Shown here one piece after another: positions 1-18,579 of a stretch of 19,170 bases of DNA. Both the position numbers and the translations under genes were made by a program. The notes under the pieces are model-generated. The model saw only the letters and a list, made by a program, of their open reading frames with translations. It was not told the origin of the DNA and did not search any database. The stretch lies in the NCBI RefSeq assembly GCF_003334255.1, contig NZ_QOWU01000071.1; one strand, given 5' to 3'. How positions within the stretch are numbered: position 1 is the first letter of the stretch; every line of letters begins with the position of its first letter. Origin of the DNA: Escherichia coli (GTDB taxonomy: Bacteria; Pseudomonadota; Gammaproteobacteria; Enterobacterales; Enterobacteriaceae).

Positions 1-265
1 TATTTTCCGAATGCATAATGACCTCCTCTGGAATATCCCACCAATGCTATAGTGAGTATATAAAGGTCATACCATCTACGTGTTCTTCGGTAGCGATCAC
101 GGCGGCGAGCGTGGTGCACTGTTGTACGGGCTGATCGGCACCTGCCGGTTGAATGGTATCGATCCGGAAGCGTATCTGCGCCATATCCTGAGCGTACTGC
201 CGGAATGGCCTTCCAACCGAGTTGACGAACTCCTGCCATGGAACGTAGTACTCACTAATAAATAA
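1..265 (+). CDS. IS66-family transposase, C-terminal fragment (5' end outside window)
   Basis: Translation ...GALLYGLIGTCRLNGIDPEAYLRHILSVLPEWPSNRVDELLPWN... matches the conserved C-terminal region of IS66-family transposases; reading frame is open to the window edge. Confidence 0.8.
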
Positions 266-296
266 GCGTCAATACGGTGCTCCATTGACGCTTACA
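1..296 (+). mobile_element. IS66-family insertion sequence, 3' end only (window begins inside the element)
   Basis: Transposase C-terminal ORF ends at 265. 266-296 holds an 8-bp-stem hairpin (GCGTCAAT...ATTGACGC) and ends ...CGCTTAC, i.e. GTAAGCG on the other strand, which I recall as the IS66-type terminus. Exact boundary is inferred. Confidence 0.6.
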
Positions 297-492
297 AATA
301 TCCGGGATATTGCAGGCAAATGTAGTCCATCTGCACCTTTGATGTGCAGTCCATCACCCGTTTAAACGCCTCCATGTAGTCATAACAGCCCTGCAATAAT
401 TGCGCGTCACCATCCTCAGTCAGAGGAAACCGGCTGGCGTAGTCATGAACTATTTTTGCCAGTTGTTGCTGCTCTGTGGTTAAGTCGATCAT
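292..492 (-). CDS. Hypothetical small protein (66 aa), translationally coupled downstream of tnpR
   Basis: ATGA start/stop overlap with tnpR (ATG at 492-490, tnpR stop at 491-489). Its stop codon lies inside the putative IS66 terminus, so the C-terminus may be altered. No family recognised. Confidence 0.45.
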   Translation of the reverse strand: MIDLTTEQQQLAKIVHDYASRFPLTEDGDAQLLQGCYDYMEAFKRVMDCTSKVQMDYICLQYPGYL

Positions 493-1064
493 TTTTGTCC
501 TCGTGAAAGCGTTCTATAAACTGTTGGCCGCGACACTGCGAACAGATCCGCCAGATCGCTGATCGAGTACTGGCCGGTTTCCCGCATGCGGCACAACTCT
601 TTTTGCTGCTTTTCAGACAGCTTAGGTTGTTTTCCCCGCAGTTTTCCCTTTGCCCGCGCAATCGCCATCCCTTCCCGGGTACGCAGACGTATCAGATCGC
701 CCTCAAACTCAGCAAAAGTGGCCAGCACATTGAAAAACATCTTCCCCACAGGGTCTGCTGGGTCGTAGAGACTGGTTCCCAGCGCCAGCTTCACACCCCT
801 GGCCTGTAGTGCATCCGCTATCTCACGTGCGTCAGGAACTGACCGCGCCAGACGGTCAAGCTTGGGAACAACCAGCGTGTCACCGCTGCGCACAGCGGCC
901 AGCGCCTGATCCAGTCCGGGCCGTTGCCGGTTTGAGCCGGTCAGCCCTTTATCAAGGTAAATCCGGTCCGGGGAGACGCCAAGTCTGACCAGCGTTTCCT
1001 GCTGTGCGGTTAAATCCTGTTTATCAGTAGAGCATCGGGCATACCCGATCCGTATTTCAGGCAT
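489..1064 (-). CDS. tnpR: Tn3-family serine recombinase (resolvase)
   Basis: 191 aa; N-terminal catalytic region IRIGYARCSTDKQDL, DRLARS motif, C-terminal helix-turn-helix (SISDLADLFAVSRPTVYR); divergent from tnpA as in Tn3-family transposons. Confidence 0.9.
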   Translation of the reverse strand: MPEIRIGYARCSTDKQDLTAQQETLVRLGVSPDRIYLDKGLTGSNRQRPGLDQALAAVRSGDTLVVPKLDRLARSVPDAREIADALQARGVKLALGTSLYDPADPVGKMFFNVLATFAEFEGDLIRLRTREGMAIARAKGKLRGKQPKLSEKQQKELCRMRETGQYSISDLADLFAVSRPTVYRTLSRGQK

Positions 1065-1212
1065 AAATGTGTACGTTTAAGGGGCCATGAAAGAGATTGA
1101 TACCGTACCAGTTATATGAGACAACGTCAGCAGTGATTTTCTCTGAAGCGCAAATTTAATTTTTACCGTCCGCAGAGCGATCCTCTTACGGACATGATTA
1201 ATCGGGGTCAGG
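1065..1212. promoter_or_regulatory. res-like region with divergent tnpR/tnpA promoters
   Basis: 148-bp intergenic region between divergent tnpR and tnpA containing inverted half-sites (GTCCG...CGGAC); position fits a resolution site. Subsites not mapped. Confidence 0.45.
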
Positions 1213-4200
1213 ATGACAACGCGTGGCAAAGCTACAGGCAAAAGTGAACGGCTGGCGGTTTTAAATAGCGCCGAGCAGGAGGCACTGTATGGTCTTCCTG
1301 ATTTCGATGATGCACAGCGACTGGAATTCCTGGCGCTGGAGGAATCAGAACTGGCGCTGGCCTGTAGTCGTCAGGGTCTTCACGCTCAAATTTATTGCAT
1401 CCTTCAGATCGCTTACTTTAAAGCCAAACACCTGTTTTTCCGCTTCGGATGGGGTGATGTTAAGGACGACAGTAACTTTGTGCTGAGCCGTTATTTTCAG
1501 GGTGAATCACTTCCGGAGCTGACTCTCACCAGGCACGAGCGCTATGCTCAACGCGAAAAAATCTGCTCACTGTACGGTTACCAACCGTGGTCATCTTCTC
1601 TGTCGCCACAGCTTGAACAGCAGGCAGCCAACATTGTTCACCGGGATGTAACCCCCGGCTTTGTTGCCACGGAGCTGATTATCTGGCTCAACGAACATAA
1701 AATTATCCGCCCCGGTTATACCACGCTTCAGGAGCTGGTAAGCCGGGTCCTTTCTGAAGAAAGGCAGCGTCTGGGACGTATACTGACGGAACAGCTTGAT
1801 GATGCAACTATTGCTGACCTGGGCAGACTGACTGAACGTGATGATACCCTTTCCCGGCTCGCAATCCTCAGGCAGGATGCGCGTGACTTTGGCTGGCGCC
1901 AGATGGTTCACGAACGGGAAAAGCGGGCTATCCTGGAGCCGCTGCACCATAAAGCCTGCGATATTTTGCCAGCACTGAATATTTCGCAGCAAAACCTGCT
2001 GTACTACGCCAGTCTGGCAAATTTCTATACCGTTTACGATCTCCGCAACCTGAAACCGGAGCAGACCCGCCTTTACCTGTTGTGTTATGCCTGGGTTCGC
2101 TATCGCCAGTTCAGTGACAACCTGGTGGATGCGATGTTTTTCCATATGAAACAGCTTGAGGATGAGAGCCGCAGCGTGGCCAGCCAACTCATGGCTGATA
2201 TGCAGGAAAAATACCGGCGCGAAACGTCTAAAATCGGGCGTCTGCTGTCGCTTTATGTTGATGACAGCGTTCCTGACCCCACCACCTTTGGTGAAGTCCG
2301 CCGCCGGGCCTGGAAAATAATGCCCAGGGAGACGCTGAAAACTACAGCACAACGTATGAGCGTGAAGCCCGTCAGCAGACTGGCGCTACAGTGGCAGGCC
2401 GTGGATGGCATGACGGCATTAATACGGCGTCACCTGCGACCATTATATCTTTCACTCGATCTCACCAGCGTGGTCCGGGACAGCCCGTGGGCAGAGGCGC
2501 TTAACTGGCTCAGAACGGTGTTCAGCAAAAAACAGACGCTTTTGCAGCGGCCACTTGAGGAGTGCCCGCAGGTAACGTTACCTGCGCGGCTGCGCCCGTA
2601 CCTGCTGGAATTCGGTGAGGATGGTGAGCCCACAGGCCTGAATGCCGGGCGTTATGAGTTCTGGCTCTATCGTCAGATAAGAAAGCGTTTTCAGGCGGGA
2701 GAATTCCACCTCAATAATAGCCTCCGGCACCGCCATCTTTCTGATGAACTGGTACCGGAAGGGGAACAGGCCACAGTGCTGGCTGAAATGAACATCCCGT
2801 TCCTGCAGAAGCCCATTAAAACACAGCTAAAAAAACTGGCATCCGAGCTGCACCGACAGTGGAAAGTGTTTAACCGTGAGCTGAAACAGGGGAAACTGAA
2901 ACATCTGGAATACGATAAAGAAACGCAGAAGCTGACCTGGCATAAATCGGTGGCCAGCCGTTATAAGTCGCAGAATAAGCGTTTTTATGAGCAACTGCCA
3001 TTCTGCGATGTGACCGACGTCTTCCGCTTTGTTAACGGGCAGTGTCGATTTCTTCCCGCCATGAAGCCGCTGCAACCCCGTTACGCCAAAAAAGAAGCTG
3101 ATGTAGACAGTCTGATGGCGGTCATCGTTGCCCAGGCGATGAACCATGGCAACCATGTGATGGCGCGAACCAGCGATATACCATTCCATGTGCTGGAGAC
3201 CACGTACGAACAGTACCTTCGTCTGGCGTCTCTGCTCACGGCCAATGACTGTATAACCGATGCTATAGAAGCGCTACCGGTTTTTCCGCTCTATTCGTTT
3301 GATCCGGAGACGCTTTATGGAGCTGTTGACGGGCAAAAATTTGGTGTTGAACGTCCGACAGTGAAAGCACGGTATTCACGTAAATATTTTGGTCGTGGTA
3401 AAGGCATGGTGGCCTACACGCTGCTGTGCAACCACATTCCAGTCAACGGATACCTGATTGGCACAAACGACTACGAAGGCCATCATGTATTTGACATCTG
3501 GTACCGCAATACCTCAGCAGTGAAACCCACGGCCATTACCGGTGACATGCACAGCATCAACAAAGCCAACTTTGCGATCCTGCACTGGTTTGGCCTTCGC
3601 TTTGAACCCCATTTTACTGGCCTTAACAAACAACTTCAGGAACTGTACTGCACCAGAGACACGTCAGCATATAAAAAATGCCTGATCCAGCCTGCCGGTC
3701 AGATTGACCTGGACCTTATCACCCGCGAAAAAAGTAATCTTAATCGCATCGTCGCTACGCTGGGGCTAAAAGAAATGACGCAGGGAACGCTGATCCGTAA
3801 GTTATGTACATATACTACGGCCAGCCCGACAAGACAGGCGGTATTTGAATACGATCGGCTGGTTCGCAGCATTTACACGCTGAAGTATCTGCGTGACCCG
3901 CAACTGGAACGCAATATCCGTCGTTCCCAGAACCGCATTGAATCTTATCACCAGCTGCGTGCAGCAGTCGCCAAAGTCGGCGGCAAGAAGGAGTTAACAG
4001 GGAAAAATGACATTGAAACGGACATCAGTAATCAGTGCGGACGGTTGATCTCCAACGCGATCGTTTATTACAACTCCGCGATCCTGTCACGGTTACTGGA
4101 ACGGCTGGAAGCCGAAGGTAACGAAAGGGGCATAGAGACTCTGACCCGGATATCGCCGGTGGCCTGGCAGCACATTTTGCTGAACGGGCATTATACATTT

Positions 4201-4260
4201 CAGAACACTAATGAAATTATTGACCTGGATGCTCTGGTTGTCGGACTAAAACTGGGGTAA
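1213..4260 (+). CDS. tnpA: Tn3-family DDE transposase
   Basis: 1015-aa ORF, the typical size for Tn3-family TnpA; stop codon lies inside the terminal inverted repeat as in Tn3. Confidence 0.92.
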   Translation: MTTRGKATGKSERLAVLNSAEQEALYGLPDFDDAQRLEFLALEESELALACSRQGLHAQIYCILQIAYFKAKHLFFRFGWGDVKDDSNFVLSRYFQGESLPELTLTRHERYAQREKICSLYGYQPWSSSLSPQLEQQAANIVHRDVTPGFVATELIIWLNEHKIIRPGYTTLQELVSRVLSEERQRLGRILTEQLDDATIADLGRLTERDDTLSRLAILRQDARDFGWRQMVHEREKRAILEPLHHKACDILPALNISQQNLLYYASLANFYTVYDLRNLKPEQTRLYLLCYAWVRYRQFSDNLVDAMFFHMKQLEDESRSVASQLMADMQEKYRRETSKIGRLLSLYVDDSVPDPTTFGEVRRRAWKIMPRETLKTTAQRMSVKPVSRLALQWQAVDGMTALIRRHLRPLYLSLDLTSVVRDSPWAEALNWLRTVFSKKQTLLQRPLEECPQVTLPARLRPYLLEFGEDGEPTGLNAGRYEFWLYRQIRKRFQAGEFHLNNSLRHRHLSDELVPEGEQATVLAEMNIPFLQKPIKTQLKKLASELHRQWKVFNRELKQGKLKHLEYDKETQKLTWHKSVASRYKSQNKRFYEQLPFCDVTDVFRFVNGQCRFLPAMKPLQPRYAKKEADVDSLMAVIVAQAMNHGNHVMARTSDIPFHVLETTYEQYLRLASLLTANDCITDAIEALPVFPLYSFDPETLYGAVDGQKFGVERPTVKARYSRKYFGRGKGMVAYTLLCNHIPVNGYLIGTNDYEGHHVFDIWYRNTSAVKPTAITGDMHSINKANFAILHWFGLRFEPHFTGLNKQLQELYCTRDTSAYKKCLIQPAGQIDLDLITREKSNLNRIVATLGLKEMTQGTLIRKLCTYTTASPTRQAVFEYDRLVRSIYTLKYLRDPQLERNIRRSQNRIESYHQLRAAVAKVGGKKELTGKNDIETDISNQCGRLISNAIVYYNSAILSRLLERLEAEGNERGIETLTRISPVAWQHILLNGHYTFQNTNEIIDLDALVVGLKLG

Positions 4261-4292
4261 CGGAAATTTCGGCGGTTCCGGCGTAGAACCCC
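4255..4292. repeat. 38-bp terminal inverted repeat of the Tn3-family transposon (tnpA-proximal end)
   Basis: Reverse complement reads GGGGTTCTACGCCGGAACCGCCGAAATTTCCGTTACCC (outer GGGG, inner end overlapping the tnpA stop). No matching second copy found in 1-500. Confidence 0.7.
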
Positions 4293-4909
4293 ATATCGCT
4301 CTTACTAGGGGAGCAGTAAACCAAAAATGAAAAGTATTATTAAAGAGAACGTTGGCAGGAGCAGAGGTAGTGACAGAATCACCAAATCCCTGTCAATATG
4401 TGATTTTTTGTTCTTAACGTGGTATCTGAAATTCACTCGTTTATCCGTTTTCACATAACACCTGCCATTTGCTTTACCTGGCCTCTTAAGTTGTATGAGG
4501 CATAATTTATTCCAGACAATATTTTATGGCCACTTTTAACCTGTGCCATTTATTACCTCGTCATTATATCGTCACCAGGATATGCCGCGTCAGCGGCATG
4601 GAAGGCGGCACGCTGTGGTTACATGTGATACCGGAGTAAAACCGCCGAAGCCCGGCGTCAGCCGGTACGGATTGATAGATTTCACCTTACCCATCCCCAG
4701 CCCTGCCAGACCATATCCGCTTTCAGCCATGACAGAGCTTCTGTGCGCGGTCGGAGTGGTCCCGACGAGGGTTTACCCGAAGTCGGGGCGTATCTCCGCG
4801 TTAGCGGGCCGTCAGGGCCGCTTACGAGCGTGTACTCGATACGTCCAGCCAGAAGACTGGCAGCGATGACAATGTAGTTACAACATTCATAATTAAAAGC
4901 GATGTTGTT

Positions 4910-4941
4910 CCCGCCCTTCGGGCGGGGGCGGCCTCGCTTTT
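4910..4941. other. GC-rich hairpin (7-bp stem CCCGCCC/GGGCGGG, 3-nt loop) followed by a short T-run
   Basis: Seen directly at 4910-4926, T-run at 4938-4941; function unknown, lies between the transposon end and the origin region. Confidence 0.3.
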
Positions 4942-5079
4942 CAGTTATGAGGGGTGGGCACGGTGCTGCGTTTGTGTGGTGTTTTTATTCCTGATGTCTT
5001 TTTGCTGTGGTTTCAGCGGTGAGGTTCGGGGCCCGCGCGTCAGCGTGGGAGGTGCATATCAGTCTGTCCACAGGACAGG

Positions 5080-5280
5080 CATTGAACAGGTTTTCTTTTT
5101 AAATGGAAGTAATTAAGTAGTTTAAAGGAAATACAGTACTGGAGTTTAAAAGAAACATTGCACCCTGTAACGCCTGCGGCTGGCGCTTTATAGCATTAAC
5201 GGTTGTAACCTTATGGAGAAGTCCCTTGCAGTTAAATGTGGATAAACAGAATTACCCGTCTGTGAGACGTGTTTTGCGTG
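5080..5280. promoter_or_regulatory. IncFII-type replication origin region (oriR) candidate
   Basis: AT-rich stretch at 5090-5160 and a consensus DnaA box TGTGGATAA at 5237-5245, about 175 bp downstream of the repA stop, the position of oriR in R1/R100-type replicons. Confidence 0.45.
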
Positions 5281-5420
5281 AAAAACAGGGGGAGCATGAT
5301 GAGCCGGAAGGCAGATGATGAGGCTGTTTTTTGTGTGCTGTGCTGCTTTTTTGTGCGTCGCCGGGCTTCAGACGTGCGGAAGCCTCCGGCGCAGGCCGGA
5401 TTATTCAGATGAGGTCAAAC

Positions 5421-6293
5421 TCAGGGTGAGGCAGTGGCCAGCCGTGTGTAGTTGTTGTTCCGCGACATTATCATGCGCTCCTTCACGCGACGGTCGATTT
5501 CGCGCTTCACGGCTTCCAGGCTTCCCCGGAAACGCCCTTCCGCAATTTCACGCGTCAACTGCCGTTTCACCAGGGTGACAATGTCCTGACGGGTCCGGCC
5601 CGCATCACGGCGCGCACGGGCACGTTTCATGCCGTGGGCCTTGCGCTCTGCCTGGTAACTGCGGAAACGCTCGCGCACAAAACGCCAGGCTCTCGCTATC
5701 AGTTCATCCATACCCAGCGCATCCAGCCCCTGCTTTTTGCGCAGCTTGTTTTCCCATTCCACGCGGCTGCGGCGTGCGGAAGCCACCGCCTCTTCAGAGA
5801 TATCGAGTGAGGCAAACAGTGCCGGCGTGAACGTGATGTCGGTCGGAATGTTACAGCCAATTGTCGGGTCGTATTCCGTCTGGTAGGTCATCAGCCCCAG
5901 CTCAGCCAGGAACTTCAGGGCACGGGTGGCACGGGTGATGGAGAGTTTCCCGGCCTCAGACTCCGTCGCCAGTCCGCACTCAATGGCCAGCGTGGTGATG
6001 GAGCACTGCACGCGGTTGGCCAGCGGGTCATAGTGGAAACACAGCCCCTGCAGCAGCGCATCAATCGCCCTTCGGCGCAGCACTGGCGGCATACGCCGGC
6101 GCAGGCCGCGCGAACGTGCATACGCCACATGCGCGGCAAAATCAAAACGGGAGGTGAAGCCCACGGCCTTTTCCATCAGTTTTTCGCAGAACTTCAGCGT
6201 TCCGGCATCTTCACGGGGTGTGAAGACCGGATTCGGGTTCTTTACCTGACGGTATGTGCTTTCAGTAAATGAGGTCTGGTTCAGGGCCGCCAC
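5421..6293 (-). CDS. repA: IncFII-type replication initiator RepA (RepA1)
   Basis: 290 aa; [86 protein letters not shown] and the C-terminus RLATASP match R1/R100 RepA1 as I recall it, along the whole length. GTG start. Confidence 0.92.
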
Positions 6294-6370
6294 AAGCTGT
6301 CGCTTATGGCGGGCACAGAATGCCGTGCGTTAATGCACTGCAAGGGGTTGAATCTCTGACACGGTTTCAT
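6281..6370 (-). CDS. Leader-peptide ORF (29 codons) overlapping the repA start (tap/repA6-like)
   Basis: ATG at 6370-6368; stop TGA at 6283-6281 lies 10 nt inside repA, as in IncFII translational coupling. Peptide sequence itself not recognised. Confidence 0.4.
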
Positions 6371-6456
6371 ATATACTTATCCCGTATTCTGTGAGGCCCC
6401 CACTATCTTTCTTGAGCCCGCCAAAGTTCATCGAAAGATAGTGGGGGTTTTCCTTT
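6365..6456 (+). ncRNA. CopA-like antisense RNA (5' end uncertain)
   Basis: Plus-strand hairpin with 15-bp stem CCCCCACTATCTTTC/GAAAGATAGTGGGGG (6396-6447) followed by TTTTCCTTT; antisense to the tap start/RBS region. Possible -35 TTGAAT (6348-6353) and -10 TATACT (6372-6377). Confidence 0.45.
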
Positions 6457-10982: not shown

Positions 10983-11553
10983 CCAGAATAAATCCGGGTA
11001 AAAAAGGGCGCATTGAGGTCAGCCTTCGCAACAATCCGGCGGCAGATTCCCTGCCGCCGTGTTGCCCGTTAACGTTTAACTTCGTAGGCTAACGTTGCCA
11101 CAAGCACCGTATTTCCCTGCTCGATACGAAATCCGCAAAGCGAATCCCTCACCATCCAGACAAAACACAGTATCGTCACACAGAGGACAATTAACATTGT
11201 TAAAAACGTTCGTTGTAGCATCGCAGCCCCTCCATTGCCTTTCGGCCGTTATCGGGCTACTATAATGTTGTCTAGGCATTACAGTAGAGCCCTGGGTTGA
11301 TTGATAAAAAAATCGCCTGGGGCTTCTGCTACATGCCGTCCACAAAACGCTTTCGGCATACAGCCTCAAGCGCCCGCAGCTATTCTAATCGTTTTTCAGT
11401 CTGCCACAATCGTTTTCCATCTAATGACATGTAATGCGCAACGGTATTTTTACGGGAAACAACACGGCAAGGATTCCCGGAACACGTCCATTATTTTATG
11501 GTTACGGACATCATGTTAAATCAGAAAGTAATAATGACCTGAAAGGAAATGGT

Positions 11554-11888: not shown

Positions 11889-13436
11889 TTATTTTTCTGA
11901 TTCAGCATTTCCGGTCAGTACAGGCTCTTCTGGCAAAGACATTACCGGAACGTCACGTTCGCCATTGAATACAGAAACACTTTCGGTGAAACCATTCTGT
12001 AACAAAGAAAAACTTAACGGCAGATTTTTGGTTTGTATCCCTGTGATCCATTGAAAAATCTCGGGAAAACGACGGGCGCTGATATGCACATGATTGAGGC
12101 GGTGCTCAGTAATATCACTTGCCATCATCATGAGAGGCACATCGTATCCCGAACGCAAACCTGGCGCATGATGCACAGGGGTGCTGTCTGAACTGACGGA
12201 TTGCCCATGATCAGAAAAATACAGCATGGCAAAATCATCGCCATGCTCTGTCGTCATGTTATAAATTGCCTGAAGAAACCGATCCAGCTTAAGCAATGTT
12301 GATAAATAACAGGATACTTTATTTCCGAATAATTCCCTGAACGGCTGTGCATCATTAAAAAGTCTGTCACAGGGATTAGGATGGGATCCCAGCATATGAA
12401 TGAAAATCACTTTTGGAGAAGACGAATTAACAGCTTCCCTGACATACTGAAGCATATCTTCATCATCAATGCGACGGGAAGAAGAGTTCCCTTCCTTAAG
12501 AAAATATTTCTTATCCGCACTGGCGGCGATGACAGAAATCAGCGTATCATGTCGCCCTAAAGAGCCCTGATTTGATATCCACCACGTTTCATATCCGGCT
12601 TTTCTGGCAAGCGTAACAATATTATTACCCGGATTACCTGTTTCAGTGTAATCAAGAGTCAGTGTTCTGCTGAGTGAACCTGTCGTATTCGGAGCAGCGG
12701 AGAAATACCCATTAATAAATATACCCGGAGCAGAGTTCAGCCATGGTGTTGTCGGCAAAGGATACCCATAAACAGAAAGATAATCCCGTCTGACACTTTC
12801 ACCAATTACGATAATTATAGTTTTATATTTCTTCTCCACACTCACAATATCCCATGAGTCTTTCTGATTGTTTTTCAGCGATTCATATCGCATCATTTCT
12901 TCTCTGGTTTCAGCTATCCCCGTTATTACATTCGTAACCATACGTTTTGGCCATGCATTTACTGACAATACGATAAAGAACAACAGAAAGATAAATCCCC
13001 GGTGGCTTTTTTCACGCTTACGCCAGAACCAGAATGTAAAAGCAGCAATGACCAGTGAAACAATAAAATAAAAAACAGGTATGCCTGTGATAAATTCACC
13101 TGCCTCATTTATATTTGTCTGCATTACAGACGCAATAAAACTGTTGTTTATTTTTCCGTAAATCATTCCAACCGGAGCATAGAATGCACTTAACAAAAGA
13201 AAGATACAGACACACGTCGCTGAAATAACATTCCGCCGCCCCAACGACATCATCAGGAACAATATAAGTACATTCCCTGTGGCGTTTTTCACTGTATATC
13301 CGCAGCACCATGTAACAAGTACAGAAAACAACAGATAAATCAGTGACTCTTTACACCACAACATAAAATAAAACTGTTTTGCCATCTCAAAAGCACATTT
13401 GGATTTTTCTTTAATACGAGACACGCCAGTCATTTT
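11889..13436 (-). CDS. Phosphoethanolamine-transferase-like membrane enzyme (sulfatase/alkaline-phosphatase superfamily, EptA/MCR/OpgE-like); start uncertain
   Basis: N-terminal hydrophobic helices followed by a catalytic domain with IIIVIGESVRRDYLSVYGYP, KVIFIHMLGSHPNP and AMLYFSDHGQS, resembling the VVGETARADHVSFNGY / MLHQMGNHGP / MLYVSDHGES blocks of MCR/EptA. AT-rich. ORF open to 13445 (TTG); first ATG at 13436. Confidence 0.75.
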   Translation of the reverse strand, partial: KMTGVSRIKEKSKCAFEMAKQFYFMLWCKESLIYLLFSVLVTWCCGYTVKNATGNVLILFLMMSLGRRNVISATCVCIFLLLSAFYAPVGMIYGKINNSFIASVMQTNINEAGEFITGIPVFYFIVSLVIAAFTFWFWRKREKSHRGFIFLLFFIVLSVNAWPKRMVTNVITGIAETREEMMRYESLKNNQKDSWDIVSVEKKYKTIIIVIGESVRRDYLSVYGYPLPTTPWLNSAPGIFINGYFSAAPNTTGSLSRTLTLDYTETGNPGNNIVTLARKAGYETWWISNQGSLGRHDTLISVIAASADKKYFLKEGNSSSRRIDDEDMLQYVREAVNSSSPKVIFIHMLGSHPNPCDRLFNDAQPFRELFGNKVSCYLSTLLKLDRFLQAIYNMTTEHGDDFAMLYFSDHGQSVSSDSTPVHHAPGLRSGYDVPLMMMASDITEHRLNHVHISARRFPEIFQWITGIQTKNLPLSFSLLQNGFTESVSVFNGERDVPVMSLPEEPVLTGNAESEK

Positions 13437-13591
13437 CCTGTACAAAAACAGACAATCATTTCAACGCATGGATATTTATATGAAACAGCTCACAAAAATA
13501 CCCTGCTCTGTCTAGCAAGATTACATATTATCAGGTTTTGTGTTTACAGCAACTGCTCCCCGGACCAGATTATTCGCATAACCCGATGAAT

Positions 13592-17534: not shown

Positions 17535-17621
17535 GTCAGTTATAGACAGTTATCTTCCGGTCAGGGCTACCAAGTTCGATCCGGAATCGTAAAAAAACCG
17601 GCCTCACCAGTCGGTTTTTTT
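17535..17621 (+). ncRNA. Candidate antitoxin small RNA, copy A
   Basis: Sigma70-like promoter TTGCAG-17 nt-TATTAT (17500-17528); intrinsic terminator ACCGGC-CTCACCA-GTCGGT plus seven T (17597-17621). 5' region 17535-17551 is a direct repeat of 17348-17364, hence complementary to the peptide mRNA leader. Confidence 0.4.
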
Positions 17622-17878
17622 ACATCTGTATATATCTGCTCCGGACTGCGCCCTGAGTCTCCCGTTGAAAATTGCCTTTTGAATTTTACGAAATACGGCA
17701 AATGGTGGATGGATGTCGAATATATTTCCAGGGGAGTTCCGGGGAAAAGCCGGCTCATGTTTGACTCACGGGAACAGACGCTGGAAGTGCAGAAAGATTT
17801 TCGATTTTTAACCTGAGCATATTTTGTTAAAGGGCAGAAGACGGTGACCCTCTGCCCTTAAGTACGTTTCCGGGATTA

Positions 17879-18279: not shown

Positions 18280-18366
18280 GTTAGTTGAAAAGAGACTTCC
18301 TCCGGGCCAGAGCCACCAACTCTCCCTGGGATCGCAAAAAAGCCGGCCTCACCAGTCGGCTTTTTT
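18280..18366 (+). ncRNA. Candidate antitoxin small RNA, copy B
   Basis: Promoter-like TTGCGA-17 nt-TATTCT (18245-18273); terminator GCCGGC-CTCACCA-GTCGGC plus T-run (18341-18366). 18286-18305 is a direct repeat of 18052-18071 in the copy-B peptide leader. Confidence 0.35.
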
Positions 18367-18579
18367 GTGCCTGTCTCTCACCACCTTCTGCTGTTCCTGT
18401 GAAAATGCCCTGCTGAATTCATCCCTGCCCGGTCATTACCGGCGATTGTTCGTATTCATTCCACTCAGCCTCATCACGAAATTAATCCATTTATCTATGG
18501 AGGAATCCCCGTGTCTTACCAACAGACGTCTGCCAGTGAAGCACCAACAGAGATTTGGTATATCGTCGGTATCATATGC

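Follow-up and report, generated by a model that had tools for sequence, protein, structure and literature searches.

The first part of the analysed stretch, a 19,170-bp piece of Escherichia coli DNA referred to here as the window, raises the question of whether a Tn3-family transposon has lost the end next to its resolvase gene, or whether that end lies elsewhere. A sequence-only reading had described positions 1-4292 as nested mobile elements, namely a transposon lacking its tnpR-side inverted repeat (IR) and abutted by an IS66 element. The nesting was confirmed. Very probably, an E. coli I-complex plasmid carries an 8,113-bp nest of three levels here, of which window 1-4292 forms the right-hand part. 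At the first level would stand a 4,118-bp Tn3-family transposon with the order IR, orf90, tnpR, res, tnpA and IR; at the second, ISEc43 of the IS66 family would have transposed into orf90 and produced the 8-bp duplication AAATATCC; and at the third, ISEc45 of the IS110 family would have inserted at a fixed site within the tnpC gene of ISEc43. Such nesting is ordinary for plasmid mobile elements, and no cargo, resistance or virulence genes are involved in it. The window begins inside ISEc45, and therefore the tnpR-side transposon end falls upstream of base 1. The plasmid NZ_CP060058.1 of E. coli G8 is 100% identical to the window, and the annotated order on the plasmid is IS66 tnpA, tnpB, the interrupted tnpC, ISEc45, the recombinase and the Tn3 transposase. 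The features of this part of the window are listed below.

1..78, minus strand: end of ISEc45, cut by the window edge (RefSeq annotation and alignment to the uninterrupted CFT073 ISEc43)
79..295, plus strand: right end of ISEc43, comprising the tnpC 3' end (stop codon 263-265) and the terminal IR (alignment, RefSeq)
296..303, no strand: AAATATCC, right-hand copy of the 8-bp duplication that ISEc43 made at its target site (read at the junctions)
298..492, minus strand: first 65 codons (5' part) of orf90, a 90-codon ORF that lies downstream of tnpR and is interrupted by ISEc43
489..1064, minus strand: tnpR, intact serine recombinase (resolvase) of 191 aa (open frame, active-site motif)
1065..1212, no strand: tnpR-tnpA intergenic region, presumed res site with divergent promoters (conservation across elements)
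1213..4260, plus strand: tnpA, intact Tn3-family transposase of 1,015 aa (NCBIfam NF033527, transpos_Tn3)
4255..4292, minus strand: tnpA-side terminal IR ('R-type'), a unique exact match whose inner end overlaps the tnpA stop codon
4293..4297, no strand: ATATC, the five bases flanking the tnpA-side IR, against TATGC outside the other IR

The transposition genes are intact

The assignment to a Tn3-family transposon with divergent tnpR and tnpA holds on both the profile match and the open frames. TnpA matches NF033527 with 762 bits (cut-off 500) over profile positions 1-954 of 954 and without internal stops, has the same length as in its relatives, and shares 86-92% amino acid identity with the TnpA of the elements bounded by the R-type IR. 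TnpR carries the resolvase active-site serine motif YARCSTDKQ at its N-terminus and is about 90.5-93% identical to the TnpR of its relatives, while its NCBIfam matches to serine recombinases are weak. Additionally, the 148-bp intergenic region is strongly conserved in a comparison of six elements, with a mean column identity of 90% and long invariant blocks, although the tnpA genes of these elements are only 55-90% identical. It contains the inverted motif GTCCG...CGGAC; as the presumed res, it would form a cointegrate-resolution module together with the intact serine recombinase. Downstream of tnpR, the orf90 start codon (490-492) overlaps the tnpR stop codon (489-491), and no match to orf90 was found in Pfam, NCBIfam, PDB sequences or PADLOC. 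Coupled translationally to tnpR and kept from Shewanella to E. coli, orf90 might encode an accessory factor of this transposon subgroup that has yet to be characterised.

The second inverted repeat lies upstream of the window

Within the 19,170-bp window the 38-mer GGGGTTCTACGCCGGAACCGCCGAAATTTCCGTTACCC has a single occurrence, at 4255-4292 of the minus strand, even when up to three mismatches are allowed; the chance expectation is 0 hits in 200 shuffles. Neither IR type gave a partner in the window by blastn-short (word size 6), an inverted-repeat finder returned none for this IR, and when both types were scanned without gaps against 1-600, the best score was 20/38 matches. The pattern and blastn-short searches thus bear out the earlier observation that this IR is single and has no partner within 1-500. 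The identical IR was found at both ends of an element from an ETEC plasmid and at the tnpA end of a Klebsiella element. Since related Tn3-family elements on other plasmids are bounded by the same IR, 4255-4292 is a real transposon end.

That the transposon lacks its tnpR-side IR, however, did not hold. This outer IR is present at 11180-11217 of locus L001, 3,783-3,820 bp upstream of window base 1 and beyond the IS66 element, where the sequence-only reading had allowed that it might lie. The tnpR-side end is displaced, not deleted, and its absence is an effect of where the window starts. The outer IR sequence, GGGGTTGTAAGCGGGAAGCCGCCAAAATTTTGCGGCC at L001 11180, turns up in 25 plasmid records (in 15 of these with at least 99% identity over the matched part) and bounds a Shewanella element of 4,121 bp on either side ('L-type'). 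Compared with the window IR it matches at 27 of about 34 aligned positions, with five substitutions and two one-base indels, and the outer GGGGTT is shared by both types. The transposon accordingly has the roughly 38-bp terminal IRs starting with GGGG at both ends that mark the Tn3 family, in two sequence types. The suggested check for a 5-bp target duplication was negative on the plasmid and on metagenome contig L012 alike, TATGC and ATATC differing at four of the five positions.

As a separate observation, the missing 5-bp duplication is a property of the present copy and not of the family, the ETEC relative having GATCA on both sides.

ISEc43 is inserted in orf90 and ISEc45 in ISEc43

An IS66-family end does meet the transposon remnant at 295/296, as had been noted, but the relation is not mere abutment, and ISEc43 lies within the transposon. 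The complete ISEc43 occupies L001 11309-15295 (3,987 bp, ISEc45 included). It aligns with the 2,540-bp copy of CFT073 as two blocks, split by ISEc45, at 99.5-99.7% identity; its interrupted tnpC is named 'IS66-like element ISEc43 family transposase' by RefSeq. Both termini start with GTAAGCGT (GTAAGCG), and the terminal IR ends ...GACGCTTAC at 295. The left AAATATCC copy falls outside the window, at L001 11301-11308, and the sequence across the two junctions is AAATATCC/GTAAGCG...GCTTAC/AAATATCC. The element therefore has the tnpA, tnpB and tnpC genes, the GTAAGCG IRs and the 8-bp duplication of the IS66 family, with tnpC interrupted, and the present copy is presumably non-autonomous because tnpC is disrupted by ISEc45.

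With ISEc43 and one AAATATCC copy excised in silico, the transposon measures 4,118 bp and its 90-aa ORF is intact; across the joined flanks this ORF is collinear with its 90-aa counterparts in the relatives from ETEC, Shewanella and Salmonella. Metagenome contig L012 carries the uninterrupted 4,118-bp transposon (1447-5564) in the same flanks with a single AAATATCC, two nucleotides off the reconstruction. These findings bear directly on the reading of the locus as a truncated Tn3-family element, an immobile relic whose tnpR-side end and IR were lost, for example through an IS66-mediated adjacent deletion. Such a loss would fit a window that holds no second IR and an orf90 frame that stops at the IS66 end; it conflicts with the 8-bp direct repeat AAATATCC flanking ISEc43, with the remaining part of orf90 and the GGGG-initiated IR directly beyond the IS, with the RefSeq annotation of both halves of the split gene (as 'arylsulfatase regulator' pseudogenes), and with the uninterrupted copy in the same flanks. 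The repeat, the restored ORF and the empty-site contig refute the relic, whose probability we regard as negligible, and ISEc43 is, with high confidence, a simple insertion into orf90.

A third element, ISEc45 at window 1-78, had been overlooked in the sequence-only reading. Bases 1-16 are its first transposase codons, window base 16 being where the feature that RefSeq calls 'IS110-like element ISEc45 family transposase' ends, and bases 17-78 are its upstream non-coding end. Its boundaries were set by alignment to the intact ISEc43 of E. coli CFT073, which left only a 1-bp ambiguity at the junctions and gave a complete length of 1,446 bp (L001 13633-15078). The target in tnpC is GAAAGAAAAATTC/GTGTTCTTCGG (30-bp). 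The insertion point is shared across IS66-family hosts with 84-90% identity along most of the sequence (94-96% in a short right-end part), and between these hosts ISEc45 itself is 97-98% identical. By the RefSeq name of its transposase, its junctions and its shared insertion point, ISEc45 fits the IS110 family, which is marked by an IS110-type transposase, the absence of long terminal IRs, little or no target duplication and a sequence-specific target.

The neighbouring replicon belongs to the I-complex

The tnpA-side end had been placed about 800 bp from an IncFII origin region. The distance is roughly right, with the IR ending at 4292, the sole DnaA box at 5237-5245 and the repA stop codon at 5421. 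As for the replicon type, RepA does fall within the IncFII RepA family models, but the replicon is of the I-complex and not a classical IncFII, which would have RepA1 with CopA/CopB-type control. The plasmid was typed IncK2/Z, the leader region matches the PK-repZ pseudoknot of Rfam with 162 bits, and IncI-type excA and traY come next in the replicon neighbourhood.

The transposon is a chimera of two lineages

By its sequence relationships, the transposon is a chimera of two Tn3-family lineages. The tnpR, res, tnpA and tnpA-side IR belong with the R-type lineage, represented most closely by elements on plasmids of Klebsiella and ETEC, while the outer IR and the adjoining 282 bp, which hold nearly all of orf90, belong with the L-type lineage seen in Salmonella and Shewanella, the crossover being near the orf90/tnpR boundary. 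The left 282 bp differ from the Salmonella element by three mismatches, and beyond them the Salmonella match falls to about 84%, against 88-95% for the Klebsiella element. At the protein level, the window TnpA shares 62% identity with the TnpA of Shewanella and 60.5% with the N-terminal fragment from Salmonella, these two being 94% identical to each other, and the IR type matches the TnpA lineage in all informative relatives.

A junction made by the IS itself could in principle produce such a mosaic: the two sides of ISEc43 would come from two Tn3-family elements joined by recombination between two ISEc43 copies, with the IS as the breakpoint, which would suit IR types that differ across the IS and the absent 5-bp duplication. 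The near-identity to Salmonella, however, crosses the IS target site at reconstructed position 129/130 and ends at about 283, the 8-bp repeat is intact, and the chimera is present without any IS in contig L012. This lineage switch away from the IS and the IS-free chimera refute IS-mediated joining, and we accord it hardly any likelihood.

Based on the mosaic and the missing duplication, we propose that the chimera may have formed by homologous recombination between two related transposons at different sites, which would explain flanks without a 5-bp duplication. The chimera is confined to two near-identical plasmids (strains G8 and G6/7) and two metagenome contigs, all with the same flanks. 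Searches of E. coli complete genomes and PLSDB for second-site copies, interrupted or not, returned just the source plasmid and its twin. Two scans of genome contigs yielded either no match or just an unrelated locus from Erwinia in which R-type and L-type IRs are nested, and a metagenome scan gave the empty-site contig L012, an IS-bearing contig (L013) and a short fragment (L014). No second-site copy was found in these searches, so there is no direct sign of transposition as a unit. No parental arrangement turned up, and the left flank, which carries an approximately 255-bp block common to many plasmids, was contiguous with the right (ori-side) flank in no other record. Separately, a Klebsiella plasmid with a related transposon beside repA was considered as the same insertion site and rejected, as the junction differs.

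Mobility of the mixed-end element

Whether the transposon can still move is uncertain from its sequence. The tnpA, tnpR, res region and both ends look intact, so the presence of the IS is not by itself expected to prevent transposition. The sequence-only reading had called the transposon probably immobile unless its second IR lay beyond the IS66. With no 5-bp duplication and an outer IR of the other type, this verdict is neither borne out nor dismissed, and any ground for doubt would differ from the missing IR named there. Because the outer IR does not match, the present TnpA may recognise it less well or not at all.

In a competing account, the mixed-IR element is a functional transposon whose TnpA accepts both IR types and that moved here as a unit, with its 5-bp duplication never made or lost afterwards by mutation or by a rearrangement next to it. 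Coding parts and a res region that are all intact would suit this account, as would two IR types that have the outer GGGGTT in common and agree at 27 of about 34 aligned positions; the nearly identical res and about 92% identical TnpR of the two lineages further suggest that module exchange is common in the group. It is opposed by the failure to find a second insertion site in the searches made, by the fit of IR type to TnpA lineage in each informative relative, and by flanks that differ at four of five positions, too many for simple decay. We rate this account as unlikely, though it keeps some weight, and consider a little more doubtful still that the mixed-end element is fully active with a TnpA working on two IR types. 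If that were true, TnpA would tolerate substitutions and one-base indels in the presumed transposase-binding region, and such relaxed end recognition would let lineages freely swap ends.

Beyond correct annotation, the relevance of the locus is slight. A window edge and an IS insertion can make an intact transposon appear truncated, and the locus illustrates cleanly how elements nest at three levels, with an empty site as the control. As a small data point on Tn3-family module shuffling, the chimeric end is relevant to the diversification of plasmid transposons.

Comparison with known elements

The 4,116-bp Tn3-family element of ETEC plasmids (for example NZ_CP024227.1 89002-93117; L002 3882-7997) has the gene order of the window element and nearly equal size, an IR that agrees fully with window 4255-4292 along 32 bp or more, and 86% and 90.5% amino acid identity in TnpA and TnpR. 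Unlike the window element, it has R-type IRs at both ends, a 5-bp duplication and no IS, and the DNA identity is about 83%. The closest relative of the tnpR-res-tnpA-IR module is the Klebsiella pneumoniae element (NZ_CP099749.1; L007), with 88.6% DNA identity, 91.7% TnpA identity and the identical 38-bp IR; in contrast to the window element, passengers (GNAT acetyltransferases and an MFS transporter) replace orf90 downstream of tnpR, and its other end was not located within the stretch examined.

The source lineage of the outer IR and orf90 is represented by the L-type elements on the plasmid of Shewanella sp. FDAARGOS_354 (L005 6001-10121), which has the same gene order as the window element, and by a remnant on Salmonella Javiana pCFSAN006269 (L003 from 5001). 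Their TnpA, however, is just about 60-62% identical to that of the window, and in the Shewanella element both IRs are of the L-type. These elements may correspond to ISSba14-like elements, a name that serves as a literature lead, and the 4,118-bp transposon may already have a name. Hybrid or mosaic Tn3-family elements, with exchange of ends and recombination modules, have been established previously (Szuplewska et al., 2014; PMC4133298). The mosaics of that work are miniature and non-autonomous, whereas the element described here is a full, autonomous-looking transposon with one foreign end.

Both ends of the transposon are present

The whole window has a single copy of the 38-mer GGGGTTCTACGCCGGAACCGCCGAAATTTCCGTTACCC, on the minus strand at 4255-4292, and this repeat is a genuine transposon end, because related elements elsewhere are bounded by identical copies. 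No second site within 3 mismatches was found elsewhere in the window (0 expected, 200 shuffles), more permissive searches of positions 1-600 with both repeat variants yielded no partner (best ungapped score, 20/38), and an inverted-repeat finder run on the window likewise returned none. The sequence-only reading was thus correct in describing a single repeat without a partner in 1-500, but its claim that the tnpR-side repeat is lacking does not hold. Plasmid NZ_CP060058.1 of E. coli strain G8 (99,817 bp; isolated from healthy human faeces, Germany) and its twin in strain G6/7 are both 100% identical to window 1-5400, and in L001, the locus of the source plasmid comprising 15 kb upstream of the window (L001 15001 is window base 1), the outer repeat is present. 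The apparent loss is an artefact that comes from the position of the window edge.

Transposon and insertion features (ISEc boundaries from the CFT073 alignment)
L001 11180-11217, 3,783-3,820 bp upstream of window base 1: outer inverted repeat, GGGGTTGTAAGCGGGAAGCCGCCAAAATTTTGCGGCC
L001 11309-15295, right end at window 79-295: ISEc43
L001 13633-15078, 1,446 bp (junction ambiguous by 1 bp), reaching window 1-78: ISEc45
Window 298-492 (in full, L012 about 1492-1764), minus strand: 5' part of orf90, the 90-codon ORF downstream of tnpR, with its ATG overlapping the stop codon of tnpR

RefSeq annotation, read in the orientation of the window
IS66-family genes tnpA and tnpB, followed by an interrupted 'IS66-like element ISEc43 family transposase'
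'IS110-like element ISEc45 family transposase', after the interrupted ISEc43 transposase
IS66 transposase C-terminal remnant, after the ISEc45 transposase
'Arylsulfatase regulator' pseudogene, split into two halves that flank the IS66 element
Recombinase and Tn3-family transposase

A block of roughly 255 bp (L001 10872-11126), 53 bp outside the outer repeat, recurs in over 1,700 plasmid records, among them small plasmids in which it adjoins rop, and may be a cer-like multimer-resolution site.

Over the repeated part, the outer repeat and the window repeat share 27 matches, with 5 substitutions and 2 one-base indels. This divergence does not represent decay, because the outer (L-type) sequence recurs in plasmids (25 records, 15 of them with at least 99% identity over the matched part) and bounds a 4,121-bp Shewanella element at both ends. 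The window (R-type) sequence bounds both ends of a 4,116-bp ETEC element, which has the 5-bp duplication GATCA. Judged from the proteins, repeat type tracks transposase lineage.

Amino acid identity of the window TnpA to relatives
ETEC and Klebsiella TnpA, R-type repeat: 86-92%
Shewanella TnpA, L-type repeat: 62%
Salmonella N-terminal fragment, L-type repeat: 60.5%

The Shewanella and Salmonella TnpA are 94% identical to each other, and TnpR is 90.5-93% identical across the ETEC, Klebsiella, Shewanella and Salmonella elements. A candidate name for the L-type lineage, from a lead in the literature, may be 'ISSba14-like'. At a separate locus (L011, Erwinia sp. OLFS4, reverse-complement 3497-3681), an L-type repeat interrupts an R-type repeat and about 150 bp of orf90-like sequence, where one element of this group appears to have inserted in another.

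ISEc43 lies within the transposon

The IS boundaries were set by aligning the locus with the ISEc43 copy of E. coli CFT073, which is uninterrupted, 2,540 bp long and 99.5-99.7% identical. The left junction reads ...GAAAATATCC|GTAAGCGTAAAG... and the right one ...TTGACGCTTAC|AAATATCCGGG..., and the 8-bp direct repeat AAATATCC flanks the IS, as expected for the IS66 family. Once ISEc43 and one copy of the repeat are removed, the element measures 4,118 bp and the 90-codon ORF is whole again, collinear with its 90-aa counterparts in related elements. When metagenomes were scanned with a 35-mer specific to the chimeric transposon, they yielded both an IS-bearing version (contig L013) and an uninterrupted one (contig L012, 1447-5564), the latter also 4,118 bp, 2 nt different from the reconstruction, with AAATATCC once only and the same outside flanks as in the plasmid. 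Therefore, this uninterrupted copy refutes both a truncated transposon and two unrelated fragments joined by the IS. ISEc43 inserted inside the transposon, not abutting it as first described; the nesting was rightly recognized for this IS66 element, while ISEc45 at window 1-78 had been overlooked.

ISEc45 occupies the identical tnpC point, GAAAGAAAAATTC|GTGTTCTTCGG, in different IS66-family hosts (L001, and loci L015 2834-4280 and L016 2834-4279). These hosts share 84-90% identity along most of their length, with 94-96% in a short right-end part, and the ISEc45 copies in divergent hosts are 97-98% identical. With ISEc45 and the tnpC stretches on both sides of it as the query, at least 80% was covered at a single place in at least 151 plasmid records, two of which were checked for the exact junction. 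It looks like this IS110-family element targets IS66 transposase genes sequence-specifically.

A chimeric element and its probable origin

Over its first 282 bp, which take in the outer repeat and almost the whole of orf90, the reconstructed element has only 3 differences from the element of Salmonella pCFSAN006269, and this near-identity continues past the ISEc43 target (position 129/130). Beyond about 283, identity to Salmonella drops to roughly 84% for tnpR and to roughly 55-65% for tnpA; a Klebsiella element matches the chimera there at 88-95%. This switch shows that the transposon is a recombinant whose crossover lies near the orf90/tnpR boundary.

The 5-bp target duplication was looked for and is absent, as TATGC and ATATC lie outside the two repeats in both the plasmid and L012, and the left flank was seen next to the right flank in no other plasmid. 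For hybrid Tn3-family elements without matching flanks, homologous recombination is the usual route, and we propose that two related transposons at different sites may have recombined homologously to form the chimera. Alternatively, a functional mixed-end transposon could have inserted here and lost its duplication later, which we consider unlikely. The tnpR-tnpA intergenic region has 90% mean column identity across window 1065-1212 and five related loci (L002, ETEC; L003, Salmonella; L005, Shewanella; L007 and L010, Klebsiella), with about 80 bp nearly invariant versus 55-90% in the flanking tnpA genes, consistent with a putative shared res site serving as a hot spot for module exchange.

Replicon and neighbouring features

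Replicon features
5421-6293, minus strand: RepA, fitting IncFII RepA family models
6306-6455, minus strand: PK-repZ pseudoknot (Rfam, 162 bits), in the leader upstream of repA

An IncFII origin had been proposed. RepA does belong to the IncFII family, but the replicon is of the I-complex (IncK2/Z), not classical IncFII, because of the PK-repZ match upstream of repA; the source plasmid is also typed IncK2/Z, and IncI-type excA and traY follow. With the DnaA box at 5237-5245 the only one between the 4255-4292 repeat and repA, the transposon end lies about 0.8-0.95 kb from the presumed origin, whose limits are set by analogy, in agreement with the earlier estimate of about 800 bp. Related Tn3-family elements lie no more than about 1-1.4 kb from IncFII-family repA in Klebsiella and Salmonella plasmids (L010 8704-9935 and L003 2802-5040), with junctions different from the window's, which suggests recurrent insertion near IncFII-family origins.

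Other window features
11219-11375, minus strand: sok antitoxin RNA match (Rfam, 116 bits)
11889-13445, minus strand: 518-aa ORF, weak, sub-threshold likeness to phosphoethanolamine transferases (CptA, EptA and MCR models, 25-101 bits; cut-offs at least 400)
17536-17623 and 18281-18368, plus strand: AgrB-family antisense RNA matches (43.5 and 41 bits, just above threshold)

The two AgrB matches, about 745 bp apart, lie near a 22-bp repeat (17255-17276/17954-17975) spaced about 700 bp, suggesting that a module of the plasmid's leading region is duplicated. Salmonella pCFSAN006269 also holds a roughly 940-bp unit (L003 8561-9499) between inverted R-type repeats with one mismatch each, containing just a RelE/ParE toxin gene with the partner gene upstream of it; it looks like a miniature Tn3-derived element with a toxin-antitoxin pair.

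Capacity to move and relation to known elements

In the chimeric transposon both ends exist, tnpA is full length (NF033527, 762 bits over the whole profile), and the tnpR frame is open with its active-site motif. The 4-kb IS insert alone should not block movement, because Tn3-family elements tolerate kilobases of passenger DNA. E. coli complete genomes, PLSDB, genome contigs and the metagenome scan gave no second site at which the chimera is inserted, and we consider it possible, if rather doubtful, that the R-lineage transposase could mobilize the element with an L-type end. The orf90 inactivated by ISEc43 is conserved (90 aa) across this subgroup of transposons, whose hosts range from Shewanella and Xenorhabdus to E. 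coli and Salmonella. It is annotated as 'arylsulfatase regulator' or hypothetical, and searches of Pfam, NCBIfam, PDB sequences and PADLOC returned no match for it. Small, free of cargo and with divergent tnpR and tnpA, the transposon is ordinary for the Tn3 family, ISEc43 and ISEc45 are already known, named elements, and hybrid Tn3-family elements have been documented (PMC4133298).
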